A DNA stretch of 64,000 nt from a virus: positions 64,001 through 128,000 of IMG/VR virus record IMGVR_UViG_3300028394_000045, one strand, 5' to 3'. Below the pieces are notes generated by a model. That model was not told the origin of the DNA. It saw only the letters and a program-made list of their open reading frames with translations, and ran no database searches. Shown here piece after piece: positions 45,880 through 64,000 of the stretch (position 1 is its first letter; every line of letters begins with the position of its first letter). Both the position numbers and the translations under genes were made by a program.

Positions 45880-46185
45880 ATGGACACAGAAAGTTTAATC
45901 TCACATGCCCGCTCTAGATTCAATCACGAATCTGCTAGACGCTTGCTTAAAGAAAAATATGAGGCTCGGATGCTGTTTGCCCACGCCGGTGGTATGTGGC
46001 GCGCTGGTCCTGAACTCTTGGTATTACTGGCCACTGTGCCACCTGGTGACGCAGTAATATTAGACTTGTACGAAACACCAGTAAAAATCAATCCTGAACA
46101 ACTGAGACTCATGGCCATGCAACACTGGCAAGAACAGATGAATGCCTGGTTAGTAGAACATGATGAGTTAAGCAAAAAACGATGA
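45880..46185 (+). CDS. Hypothetical protein
   Basis: ORF after the terminator, ATGA-coupled to the GT gene. Confidence 0.6.
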   Translation: MDTESLISHARSRFNHESARRLLKEKYEARMLFAHAGGMWRAGPELLVLLATVPPGDAVILDLYETPVKINPEQLRLMAMQHWQEQMNAWLVEHDELSKKR

Positions 46186-47021
46186 CCACTGGTGCATTGA
46201 TATTTGCGTTCAATAATGAAAAAACTGACTATATAGCCATGGCAGCTTGGTCGGCACGAAACATACACAGACATCTTGAGATTCCGGTAGCAGTGGTCAC
46301 TGACTATGAATACCATGCAGATCTGTCAGTATTCGATCAAGTGATCTTTTCAGAGTCCAGCTCAGGTGGCTCAAGGAATTTTGAAGATTACCAAGCAACC
46401 GTGACCTGGCACAACGCCGGCAGACCCGATGCATACCATCTCACACCCTGGCACAATACTCTATTATTGGATGCTGACTACATAGTGGCCAGCGACAATT
46501 TACGTGGCATCTGTAGCAACGGTAGAGATCTGCAGGCCTACGCAAGGTCTGTGGATGTGCATGGAAGGCAAGACCTAGATTGGTTTGGAAATCCGTTGAT
46601 GCCCATGTCATGGGCCACGGTGGTGCAATTTCAAAAATGCCCACAGGCCAAATACATATTTGATTGCATGAACATGATCAAACAGCACTGGCAGCATTAC
46701 AGAGATATCTACCATATTCACAGCAGCACATACCGCAATGATTACTCACTGAGCATGGCCATGAACATCGTGAATGGGCATGTGCTACCCCACAATGCAA
46801 TCTTGGGTGCATTGACCAATGTGTATCCCAGTGACACACTGACACAAACGCAGGAAGATTGCTATCGTATCACATGGACAGATTCAGCTGGAAAGAAACA
46901 CCATGTGGATCTAGCCAATCAGGATCTGCATGCCATGGGCAAAAGAGATTTAGAGGTCATAGTTGAAAGTCATAGAAGAGCAAGGCTATCTCATAGCAGC
47001 CTGGAACTCGCCCACGGTTGA
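46182..47021 (+). CDS. GT-A fold glycosyltransferase-like protein
   Basis: GALIFAFN, VAVVTD, TPWHNTLLLDADY (DxD), YRNDY, HAMGK. Confidence 0.7.
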   Translation: MTTGALIFAFNNEKTDYIAMAAWSARNIHRHLEIPVAVVTDYEYHADLSVFDQVIFSESSSGGSRNFEDYQATVTWHNAGRPDAYHLTPWHNTLLLDADYIVASDNLRGICSNGRDLQAYARSVDVHGRQDLDWFGNPLMPMSWATVVQFQKCPQAKYIFDCMNMIKQHWQHYRDIYHIHSSTYRNDYSLSMAMNIVNGHVLPHNAILGALTNVYPSDTLTQTQEDCYRITWTDSAGKKHHVDLANQDLHAMGKRDLEVIVESHRRARLSHSSLELAHG

Positions 47022-47736
47022 TTACTTCAACTGCGCGAAGTCACTGGCACAAACACTCAAGCACTGGCATCCTGATGCCAGGGTGTGCTTGGTCACGGAT
47101 CAAGATGTCACAGATACTGTATTTGATCATGTGCGTGTGATCACACGAGTCAATCTTGACAATGCCTACGCAGATGATTGGCAAGTGTTCTATCAATCTC
47201 CATTCCGAGAAACCATCAAACTGGAAGCCGACATGTGGATCACCAGTTCAATCGATCACTGGTGGAACCTGTTCCGCAAGCGTGATCTGGTGATCAGCAC
47301 AGGTTGCAGAACCTGGCAAGATCGGGCCAGCCCAGCAAGAAATTATCGCCGAGTGTTTGATGCAAACAACTTGCCCGATGTGTATAACGCTATCACTTAC
47401 TGGAGACTGAGCCCAACTGCAAAAGAGTTCTTTGGGCTGGTGCGTAACATATTCGAGCATTGGGCAGAGTACCGCAAACTACTGAAGTTTCCAGAAGATG
47501 TGCCATCAACTGATCTTGTGTATGCTGTGGCAGCACACATAATAGGACCCGAATCAGTGACTTTGCCGTTTGCTACATATCCCCGGATAGTGCATATGAA
47601 ACGGCATCATGCTGGTACCCAAACAGAAAACTGGACCAAAGAGCTGATCTGGGAATGGGATCGAGGAAATCTGCGTGTTCAGACCCTAGCACAATCAGGA
47701 GCATTTCACTATCATGTCAAACCAACCCTTAACTGA
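46963..47736 (+). CDS. GT-A fold glycosyltransferase-like protein
   Basis: VCLVTD, SPFRETIKLEADM (ExD), STD, FHYHVK; paralogous to the upstream gene; TTG start. Confidence 0.65.
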   Translation: MKVIEEQGYLIAAWNSPTVDYFNCAKSLAQTLKHWHPDARVCLVTDQDVTDTVFDHVRVITRVNLDNAYADDWQVFYQSPFRETIKLEADMWITSSIDHWWNLFRKRDLVISTGCRTWQDRASPARNYRRVFDANNLPDVYNAITYWRLSPTAKEFFGLVRNIFEHWAEYRKLLKFPEDVPSTDLVYAVAAHIIGPESVTLPFATYPRIVHMKRHHAGTQTENWTKELIWEWDRGNLRVQTLAQSGAFHYHVKPTLN

Positions 47737-48064
47737 AGAACAATTCTGGGCTGCATTGTATGCAATGCCCGAGCCTCGACCGGTGTTCTTTAGATTGTAC
47801 CACGACGATCAAGGACGTATATTATTCTACAGCATGGAAGATGTTCCAGGTACATATATTGAGATTGATGCCGAGACTTTTGCGCGGTCCTACACCAACA
47901 TGAGAGTGAAGGATGGAAAGTTGATTGAAATAGCACGGACCACCAGTGTAAAACTCATTCCCGGAGACACTGGCACACCTTGTGATCCTACTGATGTGAG
48001 CATAGTGGTGTCAGAACAACAACCCACTACCAAATGGAGCAAAAGAACATATGAATCAAATTGA
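47714..48064 (+). CDS. Hypothetical protein
   Basis: Coupled ORF inside the GT cluster (FRLYHDDQG). Confidence 0.55.
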   Translation: MSNQPLTEEQFWAALYAMPEPRPVFFRLYHDDQGRILFYSMEDVPGTYIEIDAETFARSYTNMRVKDGKLIEIARTTSVKLIPGDTGTPCDPTDVSIVVSEQQPTTKWSKRTYESN

Positions 48065-48974
48065 TATAGCAGACTTAGATTGTATCTATCTCACCTACGA
48101 CGAGCCACAACGTGAAGAGTTTTGGGTAAAGATAAAAAACATGATCCCGTGGGCCAAGCGTGTGGATGGCATCAAAGGATCGGACGCAGCACACAAAGCC
48201 GCTGCCGCAGCCAGTGATACCGAGCGTTTCATCCTGGTAGATGGTGACAACTTGCCATCCGCAGATTTCTTCAACAAGACATTGCAATTCCCCACAGCTG
48301 ACTATGAACGAGCAGTGTTCCGGTGGCGTGCCAGAAATCATGTGAATGGACTCATGTACGGCAACGGCGGCATCAGCTCATGGACACGTGAATTTGCAAA
48401 TGCCATGCGTACCCATGAAGCCACCGACGGCCGCACAGAAACACAAGTGGAGTTTTGCTTTGATCCGTTGTACTGGGCCATGCATGATTGCTACAGCACA
48501 ACCTACCCGGCTCAATCGCCATTCCATGCATGGCGCGCTGGATTCCGCGAAGGTGTAAAGATGTGTTTGAACAAAGGTGCCCGGCCTACTGTTGAAGAAT
48601 TCAAGAATCAAGTGTTGAGAAATCTCGACCATTTGACCATATGGCATAATATTGGTTCGGACGTGGAAAATGGAGAGTGGTGCATGGCTGGTTCCAGACA
48701 AGGTACCTACATGACCATGCTGACCAATTGGGATCATACGTTGGTTCAAGATTTTGATGCGTTAGCTGAAATTTGGGAAACCGTGAAAGATGTCCAACCA
48801 CGCATACTAAGTAACCAGTTAGGTCCTGAGATTGGTACTCAATTGGACTTGCCAATGGCCATCCTAGAGGCTGAACAGAGTGCGTTTTTCAAATATCACT
48901 ATCGATCAAATTGGCATAACCGTGGTGCCATGGTTCGAGAGATAGATGTAATACGCCAGCAAGAAGGATGGTGA
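48051..48974 (+). CDS. GT-A fold glycosyltransferase-like protein
   Basis: YLTYDEP, RVDGIKGSDAAH, FILVDGDN (DxD), NGLMYGNGG, AWRAGFREGVK. Confidence 0.65.
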   Translation: MNQIDIADLDCIYLTYDEPQREEFWVKIKNMIPWAKRVDGIKGSDAAHKAAAAASDTERFILVDGDNLPSADFFNKTLQFPTADYERAVFRWRARNHVNGLMYGNGGISSWTREFANAMRTHEATDGRTETQVEFCFDPLYWAMHDCYSTTYPAQSPFHAWRAGFREGVKMCLNKGARPTVEEFKNQVLRNLDHLTIWHNIGSDVENGEWCMAGSRQGTYMTMLTNWDHTLVQDFDALAEIWETVKDVQPRILSNQLGPEIGTQLDLPMAILEAEQSAFFKYHYRSNWHNRGAMVREIDVIRQQEGW

Positions 48975-48975
48975 T

Positions 48976-49500
48976 ATGCTTAAAATAATCAATTTAGATT
49001 ATGATTTTTCAAAGATTTTGTCTGCTGACTATGCTCAACATGAAGGTAGCTGTATCAGCCACCAGGTTTATGAACTAACAGATATCCATGATCGGTATGG
49101 AGGATTTCCTACTACCTATTGTTATGAAAATACCAAAATACATCAACTATGGTGGGAAAAAGACGATGTTGATTTTGTAGAGATTGGGCGACAATTAGGA
49201 ATGGAAGTAATTACGGTCAGCAGTATTTCTCAGCCACCGGGATGTGTGATACCGCTACACCGAGATACCTTTTATCAAATCAACAAACAATATCCGGATA
49301 GAACAGAACCCAAAGTCCGTGCCAACATTTATCTTGAAGATTGGAAACTAGGACATTTTCTTCAATACGATGATGAGATAAGTGTTAAATGGAATGCAGG
49401 CGACGGACTATTGTGGGACTCTTCCCACTTGCATCTATCAGCCAATGCAGGCATGCAAAACAAGTACACATTACAAGTATCGGGATTTCTAATAGAATGA
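48976..49500 (+). CDS. 2OG-Fe(II)/cupin oxygenase (Asp/Asn/Pro hydroxylase-like)
   Basis: PPGCVIPLHRD (HxD) and distal His (HLSANAG), KYTLQVSG. Confidence 0.7.
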   Translation: MLKIINLDYDFSKILSADYAQHEGSCISHQVYELTDIHDRYGGFPTTYCYENTKIHQLWWEKDDVDFVEIGRQLGMEVITVSSISQPPGCVIPLHRDTFYQINKQYPDRTEPKVRANIYLEDWKLGHFLQYDDEISVKWNAGDGLLWDSSHLHLSANAGMQNKYTLQVSGFLIE

Positions 49501-50444
49501 GATTTAAAATTATTCCAGCTGATACTTTTATCTGGAATCTGTCAGAGTTGGTTGATTTTTTAATAGAATATCAAAATCAAGACATTGTTATAATCAATGG
49601 CACCGAAGGATGCTGTTCGACCACCATTGGGTTATATAAGTGGTTGGATAAATTTAAATTTAGTAATGTTACCATAGAAACCGGTAACATATTGGAAAGT
49701 CATAATCAATACAAAGTTTCCTATACGGCCCCGTGGAAATTTCTCGACATAGCAAGACCGATTGATCGGGCTCATCATATATGGAATCGTCAATCGATAT
49801 TTGGGACGTTATATGGTCGCCCGCTATGGCATAGAATAGGTATTGCATCCCATCTACTATCGTCGCATAAGTCTATCAGTGAGATTGGTTGTTTGATTAA
49901 TCCTGCAGATTCAGACCAACGAGAACTATTTGAAATTCTAGAATTGTGGAAATATGATCCTAATAGCTTAATTAAATTTTCTAATGTGTTTTCTCAGTTT
50001 CCGTGCTACCATCAAGATGTTGATCAATACACACCTGGTGCAACACTAACTGACGGATTTGTTAAACAAACGGAAAGAGTATACAAGAATTTCTTCATTG
50101 ACATAGTGGCAGAAACTTACACTAGCGGTAATTCTTTTTTCATAACTGAAAAAACAGTACGTCCCATGCTGCTGAAAAAACCATTGATTTTAATGGGTGC
50201 AAAAGATTGCCTAAATTATCTAAGGCAAATGGGATTCAGAACATTCGGCGATTTTTGGGACGAAACATATGATGGGTATGAAGGCCGTGAGAGATATTTG
50301 CGTATATTAGATCTAATAGATTGGATCGCAGGGCATAGTCACGATCGGTTGGAAACCATGTATTGGGATATGCAATATACATTAGATCACAATTATAATC
50401 TACTGATTAATCAGCACTACAACACAGATATAACAAAAATATAA
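49497..50444 (+). CDS. 'TEK'-motif putative GT-B glycosyltransferase
   Basis: DIVAET...FITEKTVRP...LRQMGFRTF..WDETYD; likely start MRFKII at 49497. Confidence 0.5.
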   Translation: MRFKIIPADTFIWNLSELVDFLIEYQNQDIVIINGTEGCCSTTIGLYKWLDKFKFSNVTIETGNILESHNQYKVSYTAPWKFLDIARPIDRAHHIWNRQSIFGTLYGRPLWHRIGIASHLLSSHKSISEIGCLINPADSDQRELFEILELWKYDPNSLIKFSNVFSQFPCYHQDVDQYTPGATLTDGFVKQTERVYKNFFIDIVAETYTSGNSFFITEKTVRPMLLKKPLILMGAKDCLNYLRQMGFRTFGDFWDETYDGYEGRERYLRILDLIDWIAGHSHDRLETMYWDMQYTLDHNYNLLINQHYNTDITKI

Positions 50445-51811
50445 TGAATAAAAGCAATTTTCTATCATCTGCTGAACAGATGCACCGCGATTTGGGGCCA
50501 GCATTGTGCTTGGCCAAATGGAAACAGGTGAGCCTACATTTGCCCACTGGACTCAATAACAGTTGTTATCATCCACCACTACACACAATTGATCCAGTGG
50601 CAATAGCAGTTAATCCTGCGGCTCTGCATAACACTGATCATAAAAAATCTCAGCGAAAGATAATGTTGCAGCAAGAACGTCCTAAAGAATGTAGTTATTG
50701 CTGGAACATGGAAGACCTAGGCCGGCTGAGTGATCGACACTACAGATCAGGTGAGCCGTGGGCAGCCGTGGATTTTGAACAGATAAAAAATTCGACAGGA
50801 GATGAAGATGTTGTTCCCAGTTATGTTGAAGTCAATTTCAATCATGCTTGCAATCTGCGGTGCAGTTATTGCAGCCCTCAGTTTAGTAGTTCATGGGCAG
50901 ATGAAGTGTCTAGACTTGGTGCATATCCTACCCTGGTGCCTCATAATGCTCCTGAGCATTTCACTGGGAGCCGTCGCCCTATACCTGCCCGCGAACACAA
51001 TCCTTATGTAGAAGCATTCTGGTCATGGTGGCCCACTCTGTACCCTGAACTCAAGCACTTCCGCATGACCGGTGGTGAGCCCTTGATGGATCGCAACACC
51101 TATCGAGTGTTTGACTATGTGTTGGATCGCCCCAAGAGTGATTTACACCTAGCAGTGACTTCCAACTTTAGTGTAGAGCCGGAACTATCCAGCAAATACT
51201 TTGACTACGTTAAAAGATTATGCGACACTGATATTGAACATTTCATGCAGTATGTGAGTGTTGATTCGGGCATCGGGCCTCAAGCCGAATACATCCGACA
51301 TGGATTGGATTTTGAACGCTTACAGAACAATGTGGAAACATATCTTCGAGATATTCCACATCGCAATAGCCTTACATTTATTGTGACCATGAACAACTTG
51401 TCAGTCACAGGATTTCTACCACTGATGAAGTGGATCTTAGAGTTGAGAAAAACCCATAGCCGAACATATCAGCGTGTGTGGTTTGATACACCTGTGCTGC
51501 GACAACCTGCGTGGCAAAGCCTACAGACCCTGCCGGAAAGCTATGCTGCAAAGCTAGAACAAGCACGAGACTTCATGTTGGCCAATCTAGAAACAGAATC
51601 AGACTCATTCCATGGATTCAAGGACTATGAAGTTCAACGACTGGAGCGTGACATAGCCTGGATGCGATCAACCGTAAACGCAAGTACCCAAGATCTGGCA
51701 GACTTCTATAGATTTTTCACCGAACACGATCGTCGCAGAGGCACAGACTTTGAGACCACATTTCCCGAAATGCTCACCTGGTGGCGACAATGCAGCTTAC
51801 ATGCTAGGTAA
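50444..51811 (+). CDS. Radical SAM protein with N-terminal twitch-like domain
   Basis: CLAKW...SCYHPP...CSYCW; CNLRCSYC; GGEP. Confidence 0.88.
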   Translation: MNKSNFLSSAEQMHRDLGPALCLAKWKQVSLHLPTGLNNSCYHPPLHTIDPVAIAVNPAALHNTDHKKSQRKIMLQQERPKECSYCWNMEDLGRLSDRHYRSGEPWAAVDFEQIKNSTGDEDVVPSYVEVNFNHACNLRCSYCSPQFSSSWADEVSRLGAYPTLVPHNAPEHFTGSRRPIPAREHNPYVEAFWSWWPTLYPELKHFRMTGGEPLMDRNTYRVFDYVLDRPKSDLHLAVTSNFSVEPELSSKYFDYVKRLCDTDIEHFMQYVSVDSGIGPQAEYIRHGLDFERLQNNVETYLRDIPHRNSLTFIVTMNNLSVTGFLPLMKWILELRKTHSRTYQRVWFDTPVLRQPAWQSLQTLPESYAAKLEQARDFMLANLETESDSFHGFKDYEVQRLERDIAWMRSTVNASTQDLADFYRFFTEHDRRRGTDFETTFPEMLTWWRQCSLHAR

Positions 51812-52916
51812 GTACCGAATCATAGTGGATGAATGGGCTGAGGTTTGGGATCTACTCAAGCCCTATGCCGACGGCAGCTTCTGGCGCTGGAGTGATCTTG
51901 ATCTTGATCCTGATGCAGTGTATGTTGTTGGTCGTGTGGTGCTCAAAGAGAACTGGCAATCCATAACTGACTGGGCACGAGCACATCCAGGTCGCATAGT
52001 GTTTTCCAATCCCGCCGAAGGATCGCAAACCATATTACTGCAACTCAAACGGTTGGTGATTTCTGAACAAATAAAGTCAGGAGAGATATTGCTGCTGACG
52101 TCAGGCGATCTTGAACCAGGTTTGAACTACTGCAAGACTGATTGTTATTTCTCCAACATCGTAGAATACCTTGAAAACATCAGCGCACATGAATCGTGGT
52201 CGCAGGTGTATCACAAAACAAACAAGCCATACGACTTTTTGTTCTTGAATGGGCGACTACGTCCGCATCGTAAGTATCTCATTGATCAACTACGACAACA
52301 TCAGCTGCTGGATCGTGCGCTATGGACCAACCTTGGCGATCAAGTGGAGATGAGTTGGACCAGTGCGTTAGAGACCGAACTTGTCGAGCCAGTGAGATTG
52401 TTGCCTGAACAATATGAAATACCTCGTGCTTTGCCCAACATGCATTCATTGCCCGCAGGATTTGTCAAGCATCATTTGTTTGCCAACACCTGGGGCGATG
52501 CCATAGTCAATCCCGCAGCATACGTAGACACATCCTTTTCACTGGTCACAGAGACCATATTTGATTATCCACACACGTTCCGCACTGAGAAGATCTGGAA
52601 ACCCATGATCATGTGCCATCCATTTGTGGCAGCTGCCAACCGTGGGTATTATCGAGATTTGCATGCAGCAGGGTTTGAAACATTTGGCAAATTGATTGAC
52701 GAGTCATTTGATTACATAGACGATCCTACCGATCGTGCCAACAGAGTGGTCGCAGTTGTTAAAGATATATGCTATAATGGTGCTGAGGCTTTCTTGGAGG
52801 CTGCTAGAGTTACGTGTAAATACAACTATCAGCAGCTTCGTGAGCATAATAAACAAGAACGAGCCCTGCTACCCGCAAATTTACTCCAACACATTGATGA
52901 CCGATCTAGAATTTAA
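51801..52916 (+). CDS. 'TEK'-motif putative GT-B glycosyltransferase
   Basis: FLFLNGRLRPHR, SLVTET, RTEKIWKP, GFETF..IDESFD; likely start 51801. Confidence 0.5.
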   Translation: MLGKYRIIVDEWAEVWDLLKPYADGSFWRWSDLDLDPDAVYVVGRVVLKENWQSITDWARAHPGRIVFSNPAEGSQTILLQLKRLVISEQIKSGEILLLTSGDLEPGLNYCKTDCYFSNIVEYLENISAHESWSQVYHKTNKPYDFLFLNGRLRPHRKYLIDQLRQHQLLDRALWTNLGDQVEMSWTSALETELVEPVRLLPEQYEIPRALPNMHSLPAGFVKHHLFANTWGDAIVNPAAYVDTSFSLVTETIFDYPHTFRTEKIWKPMIMCHPFVAAANRGYYRDLHAAGFETFGKLIDESFDYIDDPTDRANRVVAVVKDICYNGAEAFLEAARVTCKYNYQQLREHNKQERALLPANLLQHIDDRSRI

Positions 52917-54228
52917 GCAACAGGTGTTAGACGCCAAGAGTGCAAGTTTTTGTGCAGCAAAATGGTACAACGCTACCATCTGGTTGGGCAGTGGCATGAC
53001 TACCAGTTGTCATCACCCGCCGGCCCATTTGGTGGACATTGATAAAGTCCGGGCCAACCCTAGGCTGCTGCACAATACTGATCAGAAGAAAGAAGATCGT
53101 CGCAAGATGATAGCAGGTGAACGACCCAGTGGCTGTGAGTATTGTTGGAAGATAGAAGACATGGGCAGTGATGCTGTCAGTGACAGAGTATACAAGAGTA
53201 AAATTTACCCAATAGAGTTGTTAAATGAAGCACATACCAATCCGCCTGATCAAGACTTCAACCTCCGTACCTTGGAGATTGCTTTTGACCGTACTTGTCA
53301 ATTTGCTTGCAGTTATTGTAATCCTGCATTCAGTAGCACTTGGGTTCGGGACATACGCAAAAATGGACCCTATCGAGATCTTGTGTCTGATGGTCGTAAT
53401 CACTTCACTCACGATCATGGCAGTAGTCAGCTTTATAGCTTCGGTGAAACCAATCCTTATGTGGAGGCGTTCTTTGCGTGGTGGGAGTCAGACCTACATC
53501 GAACCCTCCAAGAACTGAGAATAACCGGTGGCGAACCCTTGATGTCGGGCGAGACTTGGAAACTGATTGATTGGTTCCGAAACAATCCAGGGCGCAGCCA
53601 AACACGCCTGGCCATCAATTCAAACCTGGGCACAGCAGTGGATCTAGATCGATTGCTGAACAGCATCGATGGGTTAGAAGTAGATTTGTATACATCTAAC
53701 GAAAGTGTAGGCCTGCAAGCAGAATACATCAGAGATGGATTAGTGTGGGATGATTGGGCCAACAATGTAGAACGCTTGCTGGATAGCAGAAAGTTCCGTG
53801 GCATACACATCATGAACACCATCAATGCATTGTGTTTGTATTCGCTGGATCAGTTCTTGGAATGCATCATGAACTGGAAAATAGAATACGGACGTGATGC
53901 TGTGAGTTTCACTCTAAACATCTTGAGATTCCCCAGCTTTCAGTCGCCCTTGGTGCTGCCCGACGAACTACGCACAATATTTCGCAAGCGGTTGGAAGTA
54001 TGGCTGGACGCTTGGTGGGACAGTGAATTCTTGCATGAGCACGAAGTCAATCATGTGCAACGCTTGATTGATTATCTCGACATTGTGAAGACCCCACATT
54101 CAGAAGCATTTGACCGGCCTCAACTGCTAAATGACTTCAAGCAGTTCTACACACAATACGATCAACGTCGAGGCAAAGTCTTTAGCCTGGCATTTCCTGC
54201 ACTAACCCCCTGGTATGACGCACTATGA
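52897..54228 (+). CDS. Radical SAM protein with N-terminal twitch-like domain
   Basis: CAAKW...SCHHPP...CEYCW; CQFACSYC; GGEP; likely start MTDLEF at 52897. Confidence 0.88.
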   Translation: MTDLEFKQQVLDAKSASFCAAKWYNATIWLGSGMTTSCHHPPAHLVDIDKVRANPRLLHNTDQKKEDRRKMIAGERPSGCEYCWKIEDMGSDAVSDRVYKSKIYPIELLNEAHTNPPDQDFNLRTLEIAFDRTCQFACSYCNPAFSSTWVRDIRKNGPYRDLVSDGRNHFTHDHGSSQLYSFGETNPYVEAFFAWWESDLHRTLQELRITGGEPLMSGETWKLIDWFRNNPGRSQTRLAINSNLGTAVDLDRLLNSIDGLEVDLYTSNESVGLQAEYIRDGLVWDDWANNVERLLDSRKFRGIHIMNTINALCLYSLDQFLECIMNWKIEYGRDAVSFTLNILRFPSFQSPLVLPDELRTIFRKRLEVWLDAWWDSEFLHEHEVNHVQRLIDYLDIVKTPHSEAFDRPQLLNDFKQFYTQYDQRRGKVFSLAFPALTPWYDAL

Positions 54229-55943: not shown

Positions 55944-57154
55944 AGATACCTCACGACAAATTTTGTGTATTGCCCTGGATCAGCTTAGAAGCCAGTCCAA
56001 TAGGCACTGTGAGACCATGTTGTCTAGCCGATGATGAAATTGTTGATAATGACGGAAATAAATTTAAACTAGGTCAAGCTGTTTTTGATCATATACAAAA
56101 TAGCGATCACATGCAACAGCTACGTGAAGAATTCTTAGCAGGTGAAAAACCACAAACTTGCCGCAAGTGTTGGAATGAAGAAAGATCAGGTCGCACTAGC
56201 AAACGCATGCACACACTGGATAGACTGAAGCATGTGCTGACAGATGAGTCTTGGAGCTCAGATGCCAAGCCTTTGATGTTCTTGGATCTTAAATTGGGCA
56301 ACATCTGCAATCTCAAATGTAGGATATGTGGCCCCTGGTCCAGCTCGCAATTTGCCAGTGAAGAGATCTCTTGGATGCCACGTGAAGAACAAAAGAGCAG
56401 CCATGCGTATGAGATGCTGAGAGCAGGAGCCTGGCCCAAAGAAAACGATCATTTCTGGTCCGAGATCGATTTGGTGCTCACAGACATACGCTATATCGAA
56501 TTCACTGGTGGCGAGCCATTCATGATTGATCAACACTTTGACATGTTGCAAGGCATAGTGGATCGTGGCATCGCCGGTCAGGTAGAGATACACTACAACA
56601 CCAATGGCACACACTACCCTGAACGTGGGGAAAATATCTGGAAGCATTTTAAAACAGTAGAAGTGGCATTTAGTATAGACGATGTGGGTGCTAGATTTGA
56701 ATATCAGCGCACCAATGCGGACTGGGCAGTGGTGTTGGACACGATTGTGAGTTTTCAATATCTCAAAGATCACATGCCTAACTTGCAGTTACAATGTTGC
56801 AGCACAGTGAATATTTTCAATGTGCGCTACCTTGATCAGCTAGCTCACTGGCTTGCATTGCAACGATTTGACTTTGTGTATTGGAACATGATGCACGATG
56901 CTTGGTATTTTAGTATAGCCACTTTGCCTGATTCTGCAAAAACACAGATCATCTCTCACTTGGAGTCAGCAGATGTTCCTGCACAGTACCAAGATGAATT
57001 TGTACGCATAGCAGATTTCATGCGTAACGGCGCATCCACGGATGGATTCATGACCCGAATGAAGATTGCAGATCTTGACCGTAAACGCAATCAAGATTTT
57101 GAACAAACCAGTCCTGAGATGGCTGTATTGATACAATACAAAAAGAATGGCTAA
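55940..57154 (+). CDS. Radical SAM protein with N-terminal twitch-like domain
   Basis: CVLPW...PCC...CRKCW; CNLKCRIC; GGEP; TNG. Confidence 0.88.
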   Translation: MKIPHDKFCVLPWISLEASPIGTVRPCCLADDEIVDNDGNKFKLGQAVFDHIQNSDHMQQLREEFLAGEKPQTCRKCWNEERSGRTSKRMHTLDRLKHVLTDESWSSDAKPLMFLDLKLGNICNLKCRICGPWSSSQFASEEISWMPREEQKSSHAYEMLRAGAWPKENDHFWSEIDLVLTDIRYIEFTGGEPFMIDQHFDMLQGIVDRGIAGQVEIHYNTNGTHYPERGENIWKHFKTVEVAFSIDDVGARFEYQRTNADWAVVLDTIVSFQYLKDHMPNLQLQCCSTVNIFNVRYLDQLAHWLALQRFDFVYWNMMHDAWYFSIATLPDSAKTQIISHLESADVPAQYQDEFVRIADFMRNGASTDGFMTRMKIADLDRKRNQDFEQTSPEMAVLIQYKKNG

Positions 57155-58160
57155 GCTGGTATTTGTGTACGATCCCAATGGGGCACCAGAAGAAAACATT
57201 CGAATGATCATGCCCCTGGGCATGAACTTTGAGTTTTTTGATCCTACTATAACATACTCATCAGATACTGTGTTTTATTATGACATGTATGGCCCTGGGC
57301 ATAACTGGGTCAGACAGCACTTGCAACAAGGTTATCGTGTAATATTTGATGCCAAGAATGAACATTACATTCATTACGTCATGCATTCTGTGCTGATAGA
57401 CTTCTTGCAGCATCCTGGACAAGGCTGTTTTATCATATCAGGGCACGAGCCCAATCCCTTGCCAGGCGTTGAGATCATTGCAACCCCTTATTGGTACTGG
57501 ATCATGGACCAGATAAAAATGACTCATACCAAAGTAGATCAAATTGCTTGGCAATCAAAATCAAATAAAAAGAAATTCTTCATGAGCCTGGGAAAAAGCC
57601 GGGTGGAACGCGACTATGTATTTGACAGCCTTGGCATTCATTTATCTGACAGTATCTATAGTTATCGAGCTCGTGGCATTGGATTGCCTGATGATTGCAC
57701 TAATTCAGTATTGGTGCAACGCTATATTAATCCTGCCTGGATACACGACACCGCACTCACATTGGCCGTGGAAACCTATGTGGATGAGACTGCAATCACA
57801 GGCTACAGCCTGACACGTCAAGATCATTTGTTTTTGTGTGAAAAAAGCTACAAACCAATGGCAGCACAGCACCCTTTTCTCATGGTATCCACACCGGGTA
57901 ACTTGGCCTACCTGCGCTCGCAAGGGTTTGAAACATTTCCTGAATTGTTTGATGAAAGTTACGACAATGTCGTTGATTGGAAACAACGTGTGATGAATAT
58001 AATCTCAGTATTGGCTGACTTTGATACATGCAGTGTCGATCAACCTATTGTTCTACAAAAGCTGCGGCACAATCAAGCTAGATTTTTTGATAGATCAATA
58101 ACAACAGATCTGGCATTTCGCACAATACAAAAACCTTTGTTTGAATTTATAAATGCATAA
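57147..58160 (+). CDS. 'TEK'-motif putative GT-B glycosyltransferase
   Basis: LAVET, LCEKSYKP, LRSQGFETFPELFDESYD. Confidence 0.5.
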   Translation: MAKLVFVYDPNGAPEENIRMIMPLGMNFEFFDPTITYSSDTVFYYDMYGPGHNWVRQHLQQGYRVIFDAKNEHYIHYVMHSVLIDFLQHPGQGCFIISGHEPNPLPGVEIIATPYWYWIMDQIKMTHTKVDQIAWQSKSNKKKFFMSLGKSRVERDYVFDSLGIHLSDSIYSYRARGIGLPDDCTNSVLVQRYINPAWIHDTALTLAVETYVDETAITGYSLTRQDHLFLCEKSYKPMAAQHPFLMVSTPGNLAYLRSQGFETFPELFDESYDNVVDWKQRVMNIISVLADFDTCSVDQPIVLQKLRHNQARFFDRSITTDLAFRTIQKPLFEFINA

Positions 58161-59451
58161 ACCAGCAACCATGTGCCTTGCACCTTGGGTGCATACATAT
58201 CTTTCTCCACAGACTGAACGACGTATGTGCTGTGCGTCAAGAGAACCTGCGCAGAACTTTCGACAATACATCGATACTGAATCAGGTACCGGAACCTACA
58301 TTCCTATAACATTAAAGCAGCATTGGAACAGCGATCACATGCGATCAGTTCGTCGTCGCATGATGGCCGGAGAACGCTTGCCTGAATGCGAAGTGTGCAA
58401 TGATCAACTGCTGAATACAGATGTATATCGCACATACTTTGACCAGCTGTTTCAACATAAATACCTGGCAATTTTAGAACAAACAGATGCGGATGGCAGA
58501 ACCACCATGCAGCCGGTTAGTTGGGATTACAGATTCAGTAATCTCTGCAATTTCAAATGTAGAACTTGCGGAGACATGTTGAGCAGTAGTTGGGAATCAG
58601 AGCAAAAGACACACCACATGGTCAATTGGTCCAATCCCAAAAACAACTGGATGCGTCCTGAGGTAAGACAACAGATCTCTCAGTTTCAAGACAGCCAAAT
58701 TGAACAAGAGTTTTCGGATGCTGTGGAGCAGCACAGAGTAGAAGAAGTGTATTGGGTAGGTGGAGAGCCGTTGATGTATGAACAGCACTGGCGCTACATG
58801 CAACGCATACTAGAACTAGGAGACGGGCCAAGAGTATATGCTAGATATAATACAAATTTATCCAGGGTGGAGTATCGTGGCATCAATCTCTATCGTGATA
58901 TTTTGCCTGGGCTACGCGATTGGCAGATATGTGCAAGTCTCGACGGCACAGGCTCAGTTGGAGAATACATTAGAACAGGCCTTGACTATGATCGATGGGT
59001 TGACAACTTCAGTCAAGCAGTTGCGATCCAACGTCACCCACGTCAGGTCAGAATTGACTTTACGCTTACTCTGCCCGGAATGTTCGAAGTTGGCCCAATT
59101 ACAAAACTTGCTAGACAACTTGAAGTAGATATACTGGCCAAAGTTATCTTTAGTTTCTCTCCAGAAATCATCATGAGCCCACTGGCGCTGCCTAGACACT
59201 TGTTGGAACCTTGGTTGGATGAACTGATAGCGGATACCACAGGTGCCATGCGAGATGTGCTAGCACAATTGAAGAACCGTCCCACATTTGAAGAACAATG
59301 GCCCGACACTTATCAGCAAAGTCTTGCTCAAGGCCGTGATCGTGTGCTACAGTTAGAGCAGATAAGAACACAATCTGTGACCATGACTGATATCCTATCA
59401 GCCAGGCCAGCAGTATTAGAATGGTGGATGAACATTGACAAACTCAATTGA
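58153..59451 (+). CDS. Radical SAM protein with N-terminal twitch-like domain
   Basis: CLAPW...MCC...CEVC; CNFKCRTC; GGEP; SLDG. Confidence 0.88.
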   Translation: MHKPATMCLAPWVHTYLSPQTERRMCCASREPAQNFRQYIDTESGTGTYIPITLKQHWNSDHMRSVRRRMMAGERLPECEVCNDQLLNTDVYRTYFDQLFQHKYLAILEQTDADGRTTMQPVSWDYRFSNLCNFKCRTCGDMLSSSWESEQKTHHMVNWSNPKNNWMRPEVRQQISQFQDSQIEQEFSDAVEQHRVEEVYWVGGEPLMYEQHWRYMQRILELGDGPRVYARYNTNLSRVEYRGINLYRDILPGLRDWQICASLDGTGSVGEYIRTGLDYDRWVDNFSQAVAIQRHPRQVRIDFTLTLPGMFEVGPITKLARQLEVDILAKVIFSFSPEIIMSPLALPRHLLEPWLDELIADTTGAMRDVLAQLKNRPTFEEQWPDTYQQSLAQGRDRVLQLEQIRTQSVTMTDILSARPAVLEWWMNIDKLN

Positions 59452-60472
59452 AATAGATCTTCGAAGCAAAAACAATCAGATTCTGACTTTGCACATTGAT
59501 GTAGAGAACAGCAGCCTTTCGCAAAAATGGTTATCTGCGTTGGATCATTTGATCCAAAACAATTATCATCTAGAAAAAAACTACTGTTGGCTAGGATGGG
59601 CCGAAGGCGATCGAACATTGGAATATGTTTGTGAGCAGATCAATCGAAGCATCAGAGCTATCAATTCTGCAAAATTAGGATACGTGATCCAGGATGTTTT
59701 CACACCGGAAAACACTGTGACAGATGATCTAGGAGTCTGCCAAGACCACATGAATCAATTGCATAGATACTTCGAGGATCTTCAAGGTACCTCGGGCGCA
59801 ATGAGTCCTTACTATACCCACGCGGATGATACCACGCGATGGCATATACGACAGTTAAATCTGCTGTGTCACGAACATGAAAGTCTGGTGTTGAGTATTC
59901 GCAAATTAAAAACAGCACCTGAGTGGCGTAGGCCTTCGCAACTGATGTGCTGGTTGCAAGCGCCAAGATTTGTATTAGATACCAAAGATTATGAATTGTT
60001 TGGCATTGAAACTATCAATAGATCATTGGGCGGCGTATATGTGGGTGTAAATAAAGCAGTGGGCAAAAATCATTGGGAAGTATTCCATGATGAAGGGCGC
60101 GACAGCCGAGTAGGCGAATTAGTTACCAGTGCATTACGGCCGCAGACTGAAGCAGCAGGGGATTTTGACATCGAATGGGCCAACGACCCTGGGTCATACC
60201 ATTGGCAGATCAAGGCGCTGGCTGAGTTCAGAACATGGCTTGTACAAAACGGATTTGACCCTGACGATAAATCATTGACAATTGGGCATCCAAAAGTAGC
60301 TCAAGTAGATTTGATTCGCAGTTTTGGTACAGTCGATCCAGATGAAATATGGCAACAATTAGCAGCTCATCAGGATGTGTATAAAATAAGGACCAGTTGT
60401 ACTCAAGCTACATATGAGTATCGGTGGAGCGATGATGATTACGAATTGCAACAAATAAGGAGTATGCGATGA
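59435..60472 (+). CDS. Hypothetical protein
   Basis: Long coupled ORF; NQLHRYFE, LNLLCHEHE, VGKNHWE motifs. Confidence 0.55.
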   Translation: MTNSIEIDLRSKNNQILTLHIDVENSSLSQKWLSALDHLIQNNYHLEKNYCWLGWAEGDRTLEYVCEQINRSIRAINSAKLGYVIQDVFTPENTVTDDLGVCQDHMNQLHRYFEDLQGTSGAMSPYYTHADDTTRWHIRQLNLLCHEHESLVLSIRKLKTAPEWRRPSQLMCWLQAPRFVLDTKDYELFGIETINRSLGGVYVGVNKAVGKNHWEVFHDEGRDSRVGELVTSALRPQTEAAGDFDIEWANDPGSYHWQIKALAEFRTWLVQNGFDPDDKSLTIGHPKVAQVDLIRSFGTVDPDEIWQQLAAHQDVYKIRTSCTQATYEYRWSDDDYELQQIRSMR

Positions 60473-60570
60473 ATTGGATTAAAAACATATGGAGCAGGAT
60501 CATGCTAGAGATCCGCTATCGCAAAAAACTGCGAGAACTGCGCAAGCGAGACCCGTTTATCTACAAATGA
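60469..60570 (+). CDS. 33-aa basic peptide ending PFIYK (not in the ORF track)
   Basis: MNWIKNIWSRIMLEIRYRKKLRELRKRDPFIYK; ATGA-coupled on both sides. Confidence 0.7.
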   Translation: MNWIKNIWSRIMLEIRYRKKLRELRKRDPFIYK

Positions 60571-62048
60571 ACTATGTGGGTATATCAGCCGGATTCCATG
60601 ACGCTGCGGTCAGTGTGATCAATCAGGCTGGCGATATACTATTTGCTGCTCACAGCGAACGCTACAGCAAGAAAAAACACGATCAAAATCTCTGCGCAGA
60701 TGTGTTGATAGATGCATTGTCTCACGTAAAATTTCCTGAGATTGAATATCACTATTATGAACGTCCGTGGCTCAAGGCCATGCGTCAATTCTACAGCGGA
60801 GAAGGATTTCGCTGGCCCACATGGAATCGACTGCTGGGACCTACATATGATTTCTTAGGACGTCCTCGAATCAACACACATGATCATCATCTGTGCCATG
60901 CAGCAGCAGGATTCCAGACCAGCGGATTTGACGAAGCAACTGTGATCATAATAGATGCCATTGGTGAGTTCGATACCATAACCATATGGGATGCAGCATA
61001 TGATAACGACACCGGTCGTGCTGAGTATAAAAAATTATGGAGTCAGCGTTACCCACATTCAATTGGGTTGATGTATTCGGCTATTACTGCTCGGGTGGGA
61101 CTGCGACCATTGGATGAAGAGTACATACTCATGGGCATGGCAGCCTACGGCGAACCCAAGTATCTAAGAGAAATGCAGCAGGCATTTTTGAACCCTAGAG
61201 AAAAATTACAATTTACTCAGAATCTTCATGTGGGAGTAGGTGATGATTTCTTGCCCCATGCTGATCCAATGGACATTGCCTGTAGCGCACAGCTGGTGGC
61301 AGAGCAGTTGATCCGCAATGTACTGGGTCGTGCCAGAGGTGTGGGTCGCAGTAGGAATCTAGTGTATGGTGGTGGTGTGGCCTTGAACTGTGTGGCCAAT
61401 CGAATGCTAGGAGATTACTATGAACGCATATGGATCATGCCGAATCCTGGTGATGCTGGCAACAGTCTTGGGTCTGCTTGCCTAGGATACGGAAAAAAAG
61501 TCACCTGGAATAATAGTTTCCTGGGCCATGATATTCCCGGCAGTTATCCTGTCAATGCCGTATTGGATCATCTCCTCACAGACAAGATAGTAGGTGTGGC
61601 ATCAGGCCGAGCAGAGTTTGGACCACGAGCACTGGGCAATCGCAGTCTTCTTGCAGATCCCAGGGGATATTCGATCAAGAACCGTGTGAATGAAATCAAA
61701 CGCAGACAAAAGTTTCGACCATTTGCACCTGTGATCTTAGAAGAGTTTGCGAATGATTACTTTGAAATGCCTTATGGATTTAAGACCAGTCGTTACATGC
61801 AAACCATAGCTGCATGCAAGAACCCAGATCGGTTTCCAGCCATAGTGCATGTGGATGGCACCAGCAGAGTGCAAACTGTTCCCAAGGACGGATCGGGCAT
61901 ACGTGAGCTGCTGGAAAAATGGTATTTCATGACCAAGTGCCCTATGCTGCTTAACACCAGTTTGAACATACGTGGTGAGCCCATGGTGAACGATCGCGCA
62001 GATGCCGATAGATTTCAACGCCTGTACGGCGTCAAGGTGTGCAGTTAG
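60567..62048 (+). CDS. Carbamoyltransferase (NodU/CmcH/TobZ family)
   Basis: GFHDAA, ERYSKKK, HHLCHAA, DAIGE, MGMAAYG, GGVALNC, GRAEFGPRALGNRS, FRPFAP, HVDGTSRVQTV, LNTSLN; true start likely 60567. Confidence 0.93.
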   Translation: MNYVGISAGFHDAAVSVINQAGDILFAAHSERYSKKKHDQNLCADVLIDALSHVKFPEIEYHYYERPWLKAMRQFYSGEGFRWPTWNRLLGPTYDFLGRPRINTHDHHLCHAAAGFQTSGFDEATVIIIDAIGEFDTITIWDAAYDNDTGRAEYKKLWSQRYPHSIGLMYSAITARVGLRPLDEEYILMGMAAYGEPKYLREMQQAFLNPREKLQFTQNLHVGVGDDFLPHADPMDIACSAQLVAEQLIRNVLGRARGVGRSRNLVYGGGVALNCVANRMLGDYYERIWIMPNPGDAGNSLGSACLGYGKKVTWNNSFLGHDIPGSYPVNAVLDHLLTDKIVGVASGRAEFGPRALGNRSLLADPRGYSIKNRVNEIKRRQKFRPFAPVILEEFANDYFEMPYGFKTSRYMQTIAACKNPDRFPAIVHVDGTSRVQTVPKDGSGIRELLEKWYFMTKCPMLLNTSLNIRGEPMVNDRADADRFQRLYGVKVCS

Positions 62049-63082
62049 AGATAGGTCTCTAATCCACCACGACGACGTATATCTTGTGTGCAGCAACTGA
62101 TGCCACCATCCCAGAAGTAACTGTGTCTTAGTTCACTAATGATAGATTCTATCTTATGCTTGCGACAGTAGTCAAAAACTTCCTTGTTATAAGCACTGAA
62201 TATCACGTGACTTTCATCTAGCACAAGACAATTAACATCAAACACAGTCTCGGCAACAAATCCTGTCCATTTGGTTAGATAGGTATTTACAAATTCAGTA
62301 AATTCGGGAGTAGGTGTTTGACCTTGTACATACCAGGCACCTGGTGATTGTTCGTATTTGAACTTGCCAACCTCCATTGCAGCCCAGATCGAGCTATCCC
62401 AGATCTTGCACACATCCCATCCAGGAAAGTCTGCGGCCAAGTTTAAGTTCACATCGTGCTTGCTGCTCAACAACACCCCGGGCTTGAGTATGGCAAACAC
62501 AGCATCACCATGTCCGTCTGTTATGGCTTCGTGTATGCGATACTCTGGTCCTAACACATTATCCACTATCCAGCGAGACTGATCAGGACGCAAGAAATCA
62601 CTGTTGTCAAAGAACACATCTCTCCCCACACGAACAATGCACGATGCCGATGCTTGATTGAGTATACAGTCCGCATCCCAATTTCTGCCATGTGGATTGA
62701 TCACTCCACCCGGTTGTGCAGCTTCATACTCTTTACATAGACTATCCAGTTCTTGTATTGGCAGCACACGCAGCAACTTGTCGCCCAGTGTGATCTGCCA
62801 GTCTCGTGGAGTAAGTGGAGGCAAGGGAGCGCCGCCGCCGGCAATCTGATGTTGTATGAAATTGCGTTTATTTGGAAGATCGGGTCTACGCACACGCGCA
62901 CCAAATTGCTCAATAGTCTTCTGTAATGCAGATAGATCTTCTTCAGTCTCTACCAGTATCTGTTGCAGTTGATTGCGAACCTGAGCGTTTTCAATAAAAT
63001 CAAAGTAGTCTGGTGTGTAAGCGCGGCCCACGATCACTTCTTCAAGTGGTTGCCAGCTGGTGTAGGAATTAATAGTGTTCAT
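62045..63082 (-). CDS. Amidinotransferase (glycine/inosamine-phosphate amidinotransferase family)
   Basis: NSYTSWQPLEEVIVGR, PRD, GHGD, and terminal GGISCCT with the catalytic Cys. Confidence 0.85.
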   Translation of the reverse strand: MNTINSYTSWQPLEEVIVGRAYTPDYFDFIENAQVRNQLQQILVETEEDLSALQKTIEQFGARVRRPDLPNKRNFIQHQIAGGGAPLPPLTPRDWQITLGDKLLRVLPIQELDSLCKEYEAAQPGGVINPHGRNWDADCILNQASASCIVRVGRDVFFDNSDFLRPDQSRWIVDNVLGPEYRIHEAITDGHGDAVFAILKPGVLLSSKHDVNLNLAADFPGWDVCKIWDSSIWAAMEVGKFKYEQSPGAWYVQGQTPTPEFTEFVNTYLTKWTGFVAETVFDVNCLVLDESHVIFSAYNKEVFDYCRKHKIESIISELRHSYFWDGGISCCTQDIRRRGGLETYL

Positions 63083-64000
63083 ATAGTTTGGTTAGTAGAG
63101 TATTTAATCTGTCGGTTTTGTTGGCACAAAATAACTGTTGGTTGTGTTCGACATCGCCACGACATTGGCGGAATAGATCCGGCAAATGTGCTTGAGCACA
63201 TTTGATTGCTCGTGCCAATATCTCCCACCGTTGAGTGTGATCAGTTTCTTGATCGTATCTGTTGTCTAAAACTGAATCAAATACCCGGTAGCCCAGGTCA
63301 CGCAACAATTGTAGGCTTCCGGCTGCCCCTGCAATGAAAAACATCTGCCCGTTCTTGATTGGTTTGAATGTTTTTTCAGTTAGGAATGTGCCGCCACTCT
63401 GATCAGCATCAAAATGTGTTTCCATCACGATGTTGCAATAGCTATCCGTGTGATACTTGGATTCCGTCATGCTGTGATTGTTGCGCTCATTGTTGGTCAG
63501 TGTATCACTGAAATACGGTGCTAATTTTAAAAATTCATCCACGTTGGTCCGCAGACCTGTGATGCTGTCAATTTCGATAGGACACTCATCATCTCGGAAT
63601 TCACCGGACTCGCAATAACTCCAATACGAACTATCCAACACACCCAGCTGTTTTAGATCAGCCATGCCAGCAGCTCGCCAAGATTTATGCAATCTATTCA
63701 ACACAGTAAATTCATGTTGTCTTGTTTCTGTGTTTATAGGTGCAGCTGGTACATTGTAATTGCGTTGATAGTACCACAATTCAAAATCAGTAAAATAAAC
63801 AAATCCTGGAAGAGCCTCGGCAGCAGTATTAGCACTGATGAATCTATAACAGTTGGGTGGCATCAAGTGATCTTCGGCCAGCTGATCTAATCGTTGTTTG
63901 ATGCGAGCAGGGTTATCACCTTCGTGATAGCAGAACAGAACTTGTAATTGTTCCTGCCGCAGTTTTTTACGGACATCTGGCGACATCAAACTAAAGTAGT
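63069..64000 (-). CDS. 'TEK'-motif putative GT-B glycosyltransferase (5' end probably outside the window)
   Basis: FTVLNR, NIVMET, FLTEKTFKP, LRDLGYRVF...YD. Confidence 0.5.
   Translation of the reverse strand, partial: YFSLMSPDVRKKLRQEQLQVLFCYHEGDNPARIKQRLDQLAEDHLMPPNCYRFISANTAAEALPGFVYFTDFELWYYQRNYNVPAAPINTETRQHEFTVLNRLHKSWRAAGMADLKQLGVLDSSYWSYCESGEFRDDECPIEIDSITGLRTNVDEFLKLAPYFSDTLTNNERNNHSMTESKYHTDSYCNIVMETHFDADQSGGTFLTEKTFKPIKNGQMFFIAGAAGSLQLLRDLGYRVFDSVLDNRYDQETDHTQRWEILARAIKCAQAHLPDLFRQCRGDVEHNQQLFCANKTDRLNTLLTKLYEHY

Follow-up and report, generated by a model that had tools for sequence, protein, structure and literature searches.

What is produced by a long run of transferase and radical S-adenosylmethionine (SAM) enzyme genes placed directly behind the tail-fibre genes of a giant phage, and to which acceptor is the product attached? 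These questions are raised by an 18-kb gene island in the window analysed here, a stretch of 64,000 nucleotides that corresponds to bases 64001-128000 of a 151,644-bp IMG/VR viral contig (IMGVR_UViG_3300028394_000045; CheckV completeness 44%). The source is an uncultured freshwater giant phage, identified as a jumbo myophage with T4-type modules because of the PHROG matches found in the window (baseplate hub, baseplate wedge and virion proteins) and the similarity of its baseplate wedge, 31-34% identical, to the wedges of Rak2-like and other 310-490 kb phages. The island starts at position 45880, runs to the end of the window and extends about 7 kb past it.

The interpretation favoured here, with a probability of about 0.5, is that the island encodes a conserved, phage-autonomous cytoplasmic pathway which makes and heavily edits a sugar-based decoration, the acceptor being most likely the fibre proteins. 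Taken separately, a sugar-based product is likely, and virion proteins as the target are given rather less than an even chance; the most likely acceptors would be the nearly charge-free fibre proteins, rich in Thr, Ser, Gly and Asn, that are encoded directly upstream. Behind a 5046-aa fibre gene (26896-42036) there are, in order, a 201-aa gene, a 668-aa fibre gene and a 321-aa gene before the island begins; Thr makes up 13.9% of the 668-aa protein and 20.6% of the 321-aa protein, and charged residues are nearly nil in both.

The island holds 18 plus-strand genes (45880-62048) that overlap or abut and are met head-on by minus-strand genes. Between h101 and the carbamoyltransferase gene there are 17 junctions, none with a gap of more than 1 nt, and most of these genes overlap. 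The order is h101, GTA1, GTA2, h116, GTA3, a gene for a cupin-like protein, TEK1, rSAM1 and TEK2, followed by rSAM2, rSAM3, rSAM4, TEK3, rSAM5, h345, a gene for a 33-aa peptide and the carbamoyltransferase gene; the amidinotransferase and TEK4 genes, on the minus strand, converge on this operon. A preliminary description of the same DNA had reported a tightly coupled island right after the tail-fibre genes, met head-on by minus-strand genes, and the gene order bears this out; its inventory of genes stands as listed, although it was cut short by the window edge and overlooked the 33-aa gene. A megablast search with the 18-kb island against 50,697 phage records gave no match.

The first line of evidence concerns the TEK proteins. 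TEK1 (49497..50444, plus strand), TEK2 (51801..52916, plus strand), TEK3 (57147..58160, plus strand) and TEK4 (63069..64000, minus strand) are mutually homologous; the first three alternate with radical SAM genes, and TEK4, which leaves the window, has 393 aa in the contig (L009:1069-2250). TEK1, whose gene has an ATGA start, and TEK2 are accessory, and TEK3 is present in some relatives only. The common C-terminal block of these proteins reads ..ET..(x)..TEK..KP....GF.TF...DESYD; residues E274 and K275 are invariant and R176 is nearly so. A further member, TEK5 (L009:2216-3379, minus strand), lies beyond the window and is the sole TEK protein that was modelled, the fold of the paralogues being predicted through their alignment to it. 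The AlphaFold model of TEK5 (pLDDT 92.6) consists of two facing Rossmann-like domains, which is the GT-B glycosyltransferase fold. With this model Foldseek returned T4 beta-glucosyltransferase (BGT) first (E 6.6e-5), and the six matches at E <=0.001, as well as nearly all the rows listed, were GT-B enzymes. VIA-align gave Z 11.0 for T4 BGT (1c3j, root-mean-square deviation 4.2, 270 residues aligned), 10.2 for the alpha-1,3-fucosyltransferase of Helicobacter pylori and 9.8 for FUT11. The preliminary description had named a structure search as the means of learning whether the TEK proteins are glycosyltransferases at all, and both tools favour glycosyltransferases for the family.

On the strength of this model, the TEK proteins are best described as a GT-B-fold glycosyltransferase-like family. 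They are like the GT10 alpha-1,3-fucosyltransferases (H. pylori FucT, FUT9/FUT11) and T4 BGT in their two-Rossmann GT-B fold (Z 8-11), and we take the E...TEK...P block of the C-terminal domain to recall the GT10 donor-binding motif; as regards the donor-binding residues of GT10, the FucT structures align to TEK5 at the level of the fold (Z 8-10). They differ in forming a separate family that has no sequence match in Pfam or the PDB. Sequence and profile searches of the PDB, with profiles of up to 92 sequences, gave no match, FucT included; in Pfam, searched at E up to 1 with 92 TEK members, no glycosyltransferase family appeared among the 25 families listed, each of which was matched by two members at most. 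Among these listed matches there is thus none between a TEK protein and CAZy GT10 (Pfam Glyco_transf_10), and of the 50,697 deposited phage genomes none gave a tblastn match to TEK3 or TEK5. The family has no Pfam model and comprises 13,599 clusters at 50% identity (E <=0.001); it occurs at 576 or more loci of IMG/VR, and the complete relatives of the phage have 3-10 TEK matches each.

The second line of evidence is the set of five radical SAM enzymes that alternate with three TEK proteins, as had already been read from the letters. All five are full-length matches to the NCBIfam family NF033640 (N_Twi_rSAM), whose curated cut-off is 170 bits: rSAM1 (50444..51811; 316 bits), rSAM2 (52897..54228; 290.6 bits), rSAM3 (54225..55943; 400.9 bits, extended at the N-terminus by about 170 aa), rSAM4 (55940..57154; 328.8 bits) and rSAM5 (58153..59451; 288 bits), all of them on the plus strand. 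Pfam places SPASM before Radical_SAM in rSAM3 (residues 177-241 and 286-428), rSAM4 (residues 9-78 and 119-269) and rSAM5, the Cys-rich auxiliary domain being N-terminal, and the CxxxCxxC motif is readable in all five proteins. The comparison with BtrN made earlier needs correction, since the twitch domain is N-terminal here and not C-terminal as in BtrN. The island enzymes share with NF033640 the auxiliary Cys domain that comes before the CxxxCxxC core; the difference is that this family is only catalogued, whereas here there are 6-12 paralogues per complete phage genome, in separate orthologue groups beside transferases. Each radical SAM gene constitutes an orthologue group of its own, within which identity is about 44-95%, compared with 20-33% for paralogues. 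Of the five, the rSAM5 group is conserved best; its orthologues are mostly 66-89% identical across the loci that include this gene (lowest value 61%). Radical SAM and amidinotransferase queries against the deposited phage genomes recovered only distant matches, in 3-4 records.

The contig carries nine NF033640 genes in all, full-length matches of 203-402 bits. The sixth of those in the window, rSAM6 (10432-11925, minus strand; 31% identical to rSAM4), is wedged between an SbcC-like gene (8627-10390) and an SbcD-like metallophosphoesterase gene (11922-12938), far from the transferase genes. Three further paralogues lie in the contig outside the window (G000:C1 17649-20493 and 142726-144003), and in the complete relatives up to seven are scattered outside the main block.

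Outside phages, NF033640 genes were found in 4 of 400 other sampled Bacteroidota genomes (three above the cut-off and one, G290, just below it), where they occur as tandem paralogues. In the two contexts that were annotated, G086 and G290, they stand beside genes for a carbamoyltransferase, GT2, GT11 and a polysaccharide deacetylase, together with PhyH dioxygenases, a B12-radical SAM enzyme and GDSL genes. These loci are an independent carbohydrate-tailoring context in which the link between radical SAM enzymes and carbamoyltransferase is repeated. As a separate observation, the NF033640 pair of G086 is adjoined by a gene for an 842-aa secreted protein (L117:6075-8603) that combines a domain found in phage tail fibres, Peptidase_S74 (endosialidase chaperone), with a sorting tail for type IX secretion.

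Related to this, the conservation of the island was surveyed at 80 IMG/VR loci, within 10 kb of TEK5. In most of them the order SDR2-DegT-h737-TEK5-(TEK4-AmidT)-CarbT-h345-rSAM5-(TEK3)-rSAM4-rSAM3-rSAM2 recurs, the carbamoyltransferase being present in 72 loci, radical SAM genes in 68, h345 in 66, short-chain dehydrogenases/reductases (SDR) in 65 and the DegT aminotransferase in 63. Four complete or near-complete relatives (G001, G002, G004 and G005) keep the whole block behind the giant fibre gene and in the same order, from h101 via GTA1-3 to rSAM1-5; G001 has 352,754 bp with terminal repeats, and the complete relatives measure 328-354 kb. The co-occurrence across related phages that the preliminary description proposed as a check is observed both in most of the 80 loci and in the complete relatives. 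The variable members are the cupin-like protein, TEK1-4, the amidinotransferase, SDR1 and PIG-L. In G004, rSAM1, rSAM2, rSAM5, GTA3 and the carbamoyltransferase show 61-74% identity to the proteins of the present phage, against 42% for the baseplate wedge, and because of this difference the island core is counted among the most constrained genes of the clade. A profile search of genome contigs found three loci, all phage-like, two of them in a metagenome-assembled genome (MAG) of Haliscomenobacter and one in a MAG of Enterobacteriaceae. The two Haliscomenobacter contigs (L093 and L094; NZ_JBBAKG010000001.1 and NZ_JBBAKG010000003.1; 183 kb and 148 kb) are phage contigs of the clade that carry the same block and differ from each other; they are either a lead to the host or a binning artefact.

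The third line of evidence is the carbamoyltransferase (60567..62048, plus strand), of the NodU/NovN/TobZ type. It matches Pfam Carbam_trans_N with 123.8 bits (cut-off 24) and Carbam_trans_C with 161.4 bits (cut-off 27), and its homologues include NovN (E 6.5e-49), TobZ (E 3e-33) and GdmN; the O-carbamoyltransferase proposed earlier is therefore confirmed by its Kae1-like N-domain, its YrdC-like C-domain and these matches. Its start, formerly read at 60489, has been moved to 60567, the upstream position being ruled out because the orthologues stop short of the frame of a small gene that occupies this place. This gene (60469..60570, plus strand) encodes a basic peptide of 33 aa with a near-invariant tail, ELRKRDPFIYK. 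It has AGGAG 7 nt upstream and is joined by ATGA overlaps to the stop of h345 and to the start of the carbamoyltransferase gene, to which it is translationally coupled. It is present in 68 of the 68 related loci that cover the junction, and in its last 21 codons, compared among 61 distinct nucleotide versions, 16,786 synonymous codon differences stand against 2,794 non-synonymous ones; positions such as L24 use six codons while the residue stays constant. The small gene is genuine, and the purifying selection on it is strong.

A back-translated DNA pattern for ELRKRDPFIYK was found in at least 120 stretches of IMG/VR, where the peptide has 33-45 aa and its N-terminal half varies freely. The next downstream gene is that of the carbamoyltransferase in 46 of 54 loci, and the upstream neighbour varies, a radical SAM gene being found there in only 2 of 65; this variation rules out that the peptide is a frameshift tail of h345. 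Besides, all 15 phage carbamoyltransferases examined end eight residues short of two bacterial homologues. The bacterial proteins, whose C-termini read ..LDNVIFYK and ..IEHILIEK, fill positions 1-170 of Carbam_trans_C; the match of the phage enzyme is confined to positions 3-152 of the 170, and the invariant tail of the peptide resembles the C-terminal piece that it lacks. The alignments suggest that the peptide probably supplies the missing terminal strand in trans, the two proteins forming a split carbamoyltransferase. Alternatively, it would accept or carry the carbamoyl group, or serve as a precursor peptide. A PDB search with it gave nothing meaningful. In comparison with NovN, TobZ, GdmN and NodU, both the Kae1-like and the YrdC-like domain are present in the phage enzyme, which differs in being eight residues shorter at the C-terminus and in being preceded by a peptide of 33-45 aa.

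The precursor role leads to the rival explanation that survives best, although it is improbable: the 33-aa peptide would be the precursor or scaffold of the whole pathway, cross-linked or trimmed by the radical SAM enzymes and then glycosylated, carbamoylated and amidinated by the transferases, to give a glycosylated ribosomally synthesised and post-translationally modified peptide (RiPP) or a peptide-derived cofactor. There is precedent for such a sequence of events in mycofactocin, in which a short peptide is the substrate of a radical SAM/SPASM enzyme and later receives sugars from a glycosyltransferase, and carbamoylation of a protein C-terminus is familiar from HypF and HypE. The maturation of peptides is the typical task of SPASM/twitch enzymes, and in NCBIfam the radical SAM genes match XyeB, WgkB, PapB and StsB weakly; the selection on the peptide and the placing of its gene within the operon, with a strong ribosome-binding site, agree with this explanation. 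Nevertheless, in a RiPP system the precursor gene would be linked to a maturase gene, and here it travels with the carbamoyltransferase and not with radical SAM genes. The likeness of its tail to the eight residues missing from the phage enzymes points to a subunit and not to a substrate, the peptide has neither Cys nor conserved Ser or Thr, no RiPP recognition element domain is visible, and in three Bacteroidota genomes a similarity search around the genes for NF033640 enzymes and carbamoyltransferase found no similar peptide.

The favoured pathway, that of a sugar-based decoration, further includes genes for amino sugars and for their modification. The amidinotransferase (62045..63082, minus strand), of the AGAT/StrB1 branch of the guanidino-group-modifying enzyme (GME) superfamily, is an accessory member, 58-91% identical where present. 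Its profile matches AGAT (E 6.4e-21, three stretches) and StrB1 (E 1.6e-14), as well as SxtG and HsvA; the catalytic Cys is aligned (GGISCCTQD versus GGFHCWTCD), and H191 and D193 are invariant and aligned with the HiD motif of AGAT, so that the assignment to the StrB1 class made from the letters holds. Beyond the window, SDR1 (L009:5577-6533), a DegT aminotransferase (L009:6530-7561), a PIG-L deacetylase (L009:7563-8183) and SDR2 (L009:8180-9160), all on the minus strand, complete the island, and ThyX comes after them. The SDR and DegT proteins resemble nucleoside diphosphate (NDP)-hexose 4,6-dehydratases/epimerases and 4-aminotransferases (PseC, WecE, DesI), with matches that are all below the equivalog cut-offs. 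The preliminary description had connected the island with aminoglycoside and unusual-sugar pathways. The sugar-building and tailoring part of that idea is supported by the GT-B fold of TEK5, by the SDR, DegT and PIG-L genes found just past the window and by the Bacteroidota contexts; the aminoglycoside part comes down to a resemblance of enzyme classes.

With regard to the three GT-A proteins that had been announced, the evidence allows a tentative assignment. GTA1 (46182..47021, plus strand), which has a DAD motif, is probably a GT8-like GT-A glycosyltransferase, and GTA2 (46963..47736, plus strand; start codon uncertain) is its paralogue. Neither has a Pfam match, and with a profile of both proteins all 17 PDB matches were to glycogenin-1 (GT8) at E 0.05-0.18, with the DxD in register. 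For GTA3 (48051..48974, plus strand) a GT2-like GT-A protein is probable: its sequence shows a DGD motif, and its Atlas neighbours are viral clusters at 0.99, one of them auto-named GT2-like, and at 0.87 a cluster with 21% PF00535 membership. It has no Pfam, NCBIfam or PDB sequence match, and in relatives it is 61-72% identical.

As inferred here, the reactions, their order and the acceptor would be as follows. An SDR of the NDP-hexose 4,6-dehydratase/epimerase type and the DegT 4-aminotransferase would make an amino-deoxy sugar, with the addition in some genomes of a second SDR and the PIG-L de-N-acetylase. Soluble GT-A-like transferases (GT8-like and GT2-like) and the GT-B TEK transferases, with their GT10-like motif, would then add sugars sequentially to a soluble acceptor. 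In a third step the five distinct N-terminal-twitch radical SAM enzymes, which belong to old and separate orthologue groups, may edit these sugars by radical reactions, the candidate chemistries being epimerisation, oxidation, deoxygenation and C-C chemistry. The NovN/TobZ-type enzyme would carbamoylate a hydroxyl or an amine, probably as a split enzyme with the 33-aa peptide, and in part of the clade the AGAT/StrB1-type enzyme would finally convert an amine into a guanidine. A more specific version, in which a clade of aquatic jumbo phages coats its fibres with a glycan that is edited, during or after assembly, by at least five radical SAM enzymes whose family would have a novel carbohydrate chemistry, attached by a new GT-B family of more than 13,000 clusters and finished by a split carbamoyltransferase that takes its last strand from the 33-aa peptide, is doubtful. 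If true, it would make this the first viral glycan known to be tailored by radical SAM enzymes and would give NF033640 its first functional assignment.

A cytoplasmic pathway is weighed against the remodelling of the host surface, another of the targets considered from the beginning and now disfavoured. The phage would alter the lipopolysaccharide, capsule or S-layer glycan of its host against superinfection or against the sticking of progeny to debris, a proposal that is slightly less probable than the peptide-centred one. It has been reported for pelagimyophages that glycosyltransferases and radical SAM cassettes lie inside the tail-fibre host-recognition cluster, modification of the O-chain being favoured (PMC7029224). 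GT10-type fucosyltransferases and the bacterial NF033640 contexts also concern surface polysaccharides. However, no membrane-like segment was found in any island protein, the island has no flippase or polymerase, and G001, G002, G004 and G005 yielded neither of the two families of initiating phosphoglycosyl transferases, PF02397 and PF00953, the control genomes being positive. These absences speak against a lipid-carrier (undecaprenyl phosphate) pathway to the host surface, the Wzx and Wzy families not having been searched. Besides, the core is more conserved than the wedge while the fibres have diverged to 28-49% identity, which is the opposite of what a fast-changing, host-specific set of genes would show.

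A small molecule is a very unlikely product. It would be an aminoglycoside- or nucleoside-like metabolite, produced within the infected cell, that inhibits competitors or host functions, or a cofactor, and the amidinotransferase, O-carbamoyltransferase, DegT, SDR and twitch radical SAM enzymes do overlap with aminoglycoside and saxitoxin pathways, with sequence matches to StrB1, SxtG, TobZ and NovN. In cyanophage S-SCSM2R a trio of DegT, radical SAM and amidinotransferase has been annotated as antibiotic synthesis genes (PMC12801897). Nevertheless, the amidinotransferase of that phage, 30% identical to the island enzyme, has KdsA, KdsB and glycosyltransferase genes as neighbours, which is a glycan context. 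The island has no cyclitol synthase, resistance gene or exporter, and its transferases, at least eight in number, go far beyond the needs of small pseudo-oligosaccharides.

Finally, modification of the phage DNA, which had also been put forward at first, is now unlikely and the least probable of all: no structure matches TEK5 better than that of T4 BGT, the phage is itself T4-like, essential genome protection would be compatible with such strong conservation, and the GT-B proteins might glycosylate bases as the T4 alpha- and beta-glucosyltransferases do while other enzymes elaborate the sugar, but the BGT match ties with the fucosyltransferases (Z 11.0 versus 10.2), ThyX is encoded in the contig, amino-deoxy sugars, carbamoylation and five radical SAM steps occur in no known DNA modification, and no known route to a glycosylatable base is apparent, given that the ThyA family (PF00303), to which the dCMP/dUMP hydroxymethylases belong, was not found in G001, G002 and G005 of the five complete relatives and Tet_JBP (PF12851) in none of the genomes searched (a search without positive control). 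The ThyA-family matches in G003 and G004, with about 350 bits against the thymidylate synthase model, were not examined as to type.

Several observations weigh against the decoration of fibre proteins. To our knowledge, no reaction has been assigned to any member of NF033640 or of the TEK family, and for this reason glycosyl transfer and sugar editing are deduced from fold and context. So strong a conservation of the core is also compatible with a product that is not a virion coat, and an operon that holds SPASM/twitch enzymes, a class made up mostly of peptide maturases, includes a gene for a near-invariant peptide. GTA3, the cupin-like protein, h345, h101, h116 and h737 are without a firm assignment. 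Moreover, a terminator-like hairpin (45826..45849, plus strand), with a 9-bp stem followed by TTTTGATT, sits in the 56-nt gap between the last gene of the fibre block and the first gene of the island. Its position before h101 suggests that the island is transcribed as a separate unit, and by parting the island from the fibre genes it means that their adjacency may reflect a conserved genome order with no functional link.

Virus-encoded glycosylation of virions is already known from the capsid glycans of chlorovirus PBCV-1, the fibril polysaccharides of Mimivirus (viosamine, bacillosamine) and the capsid and tail of mycobacteriophages, and the parts of the present island are catalogued families or known folds. 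The likeness to these systems lies in soluble viral glycosyltransferases, in 4,6-dehydratase and aminotransferase genes near structural genes and in independence from the lipid-carrier machinery of the host. On the other hand, we know of no radical SAM enzyme, no carbamoyltransferase with a partner peptide and no amidinotransferase in them, and in the present case virion glycosylation is a proposal made from the gene content. The pelagimyophage and cyanomyophage clusters share with the island the presence of glycosyltransferases and radical SAM cassettes next to tail-fibre genes in aquatic T4-like phages; they are mentioned in passing (PMC7029224, PMC12801897), and the radical SAM family, the TEK family, the peptide and the conserved core are undefined there. 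Literature searches for the name of the radical SAM family or for the gene combination found no paper that defines the system, and the radical SAM battery, the TEK family, the pairing of peptide and carbamoyltransferase and the clade-wide conservation of the block were all undescribed in the literature searched.

Two very large families, NF033640 and the TEK GT-B proteins, are thereby placed in a defined, conserved and experimentally approachable context, and the peptide with its truncated carbamoyltransferase provides a testable case of a split enzyme or a carrier peptide. The phages commit at least 25 kb to the block and up to 12 oxygen-sensitive Fe-S enzymes per genome. The identity of the product would give new radical chemistry on carbohydrates (or peptides), would tell whether the glycosylation of virions seen in giant eukaryotic viruses also occurs in large aquatic phages, and would explain the radical SAM cassettes in the host-recognition clusters of marine T4-like phages.

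Among the remaining members of the island, the cupin-like protein (48976..49500, plus strand) is a small accessory protein and a candidate 2-oxoglutarate/Fe oxygenase. Its HxD...H motif and a match to Pfam Asp_Arg_Hydrox at only E 0.065 agree with the oxygenase named in the preliminary description, though weakly, and no PDB match was obtained; the gene is present in G005 and was not detected at that position in G001, G002 and G004. The first gene of the operon, h101 (45880..46185, plus strand), encodes a conserved 101-aa protein with orthologues of 25-61% identity at the same position in four complete relatives, and h116 (47714..48064, plus strand) a conserved 116-aa protein; neither has a Pfam match. 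The conserved protein h345 (59435..60472, plus strand) is predicted to fold as a cyclophilin-like barrel with an inserted helical bundle (AlphaFold2 model, pLDDT 88.3; VIA Z of about 8 to cyclophilins, a level which the tool rates as common). It gave no Pfam or PDB sequence match, no Foldseek match with the model and an uninformative Atlas result, and its candidacy as a TEK paralogue is ruled out by the absence of the TEK block. Beyond the window, the C-terminal domain of the 737-aa protein h737 (L009:3378-5591, plus strand; residues 510-723) is homologous to GTA3 (E 8e-14); it is the only part of h737 that resembles GTA3, and it lacks the DGD motif. The N-terminal 500 residues contain repeated short motifs, for instance VFGNQW(Y/W)P and DF.W.P..WQS, with no database match.

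Some signals and genes elsewhere in the window complete the picture. The 668-aa fibre gene is preceded by the late-promoter core TATAAATA at 42803, and the amidinotransferase gene by a TAAATA motif 19 nt before its start. In the whole window TAAATA is depleted, with 18 sites observed against 36.7 expected; several of them stand just upstream of structural gene starts, which fits T4-type late promoters. Lastly, a plain radical SAM gene (5214-6116) adjoins a pair of paralogues, each of about 350 aa (6121-7182 and 7612-8667; 32% identical), all three genes being on the minus strand, and one of these paralogues has a weak class I/II aminotransferase match, so that the segment 5214-8667 may be a further small tailoring module.

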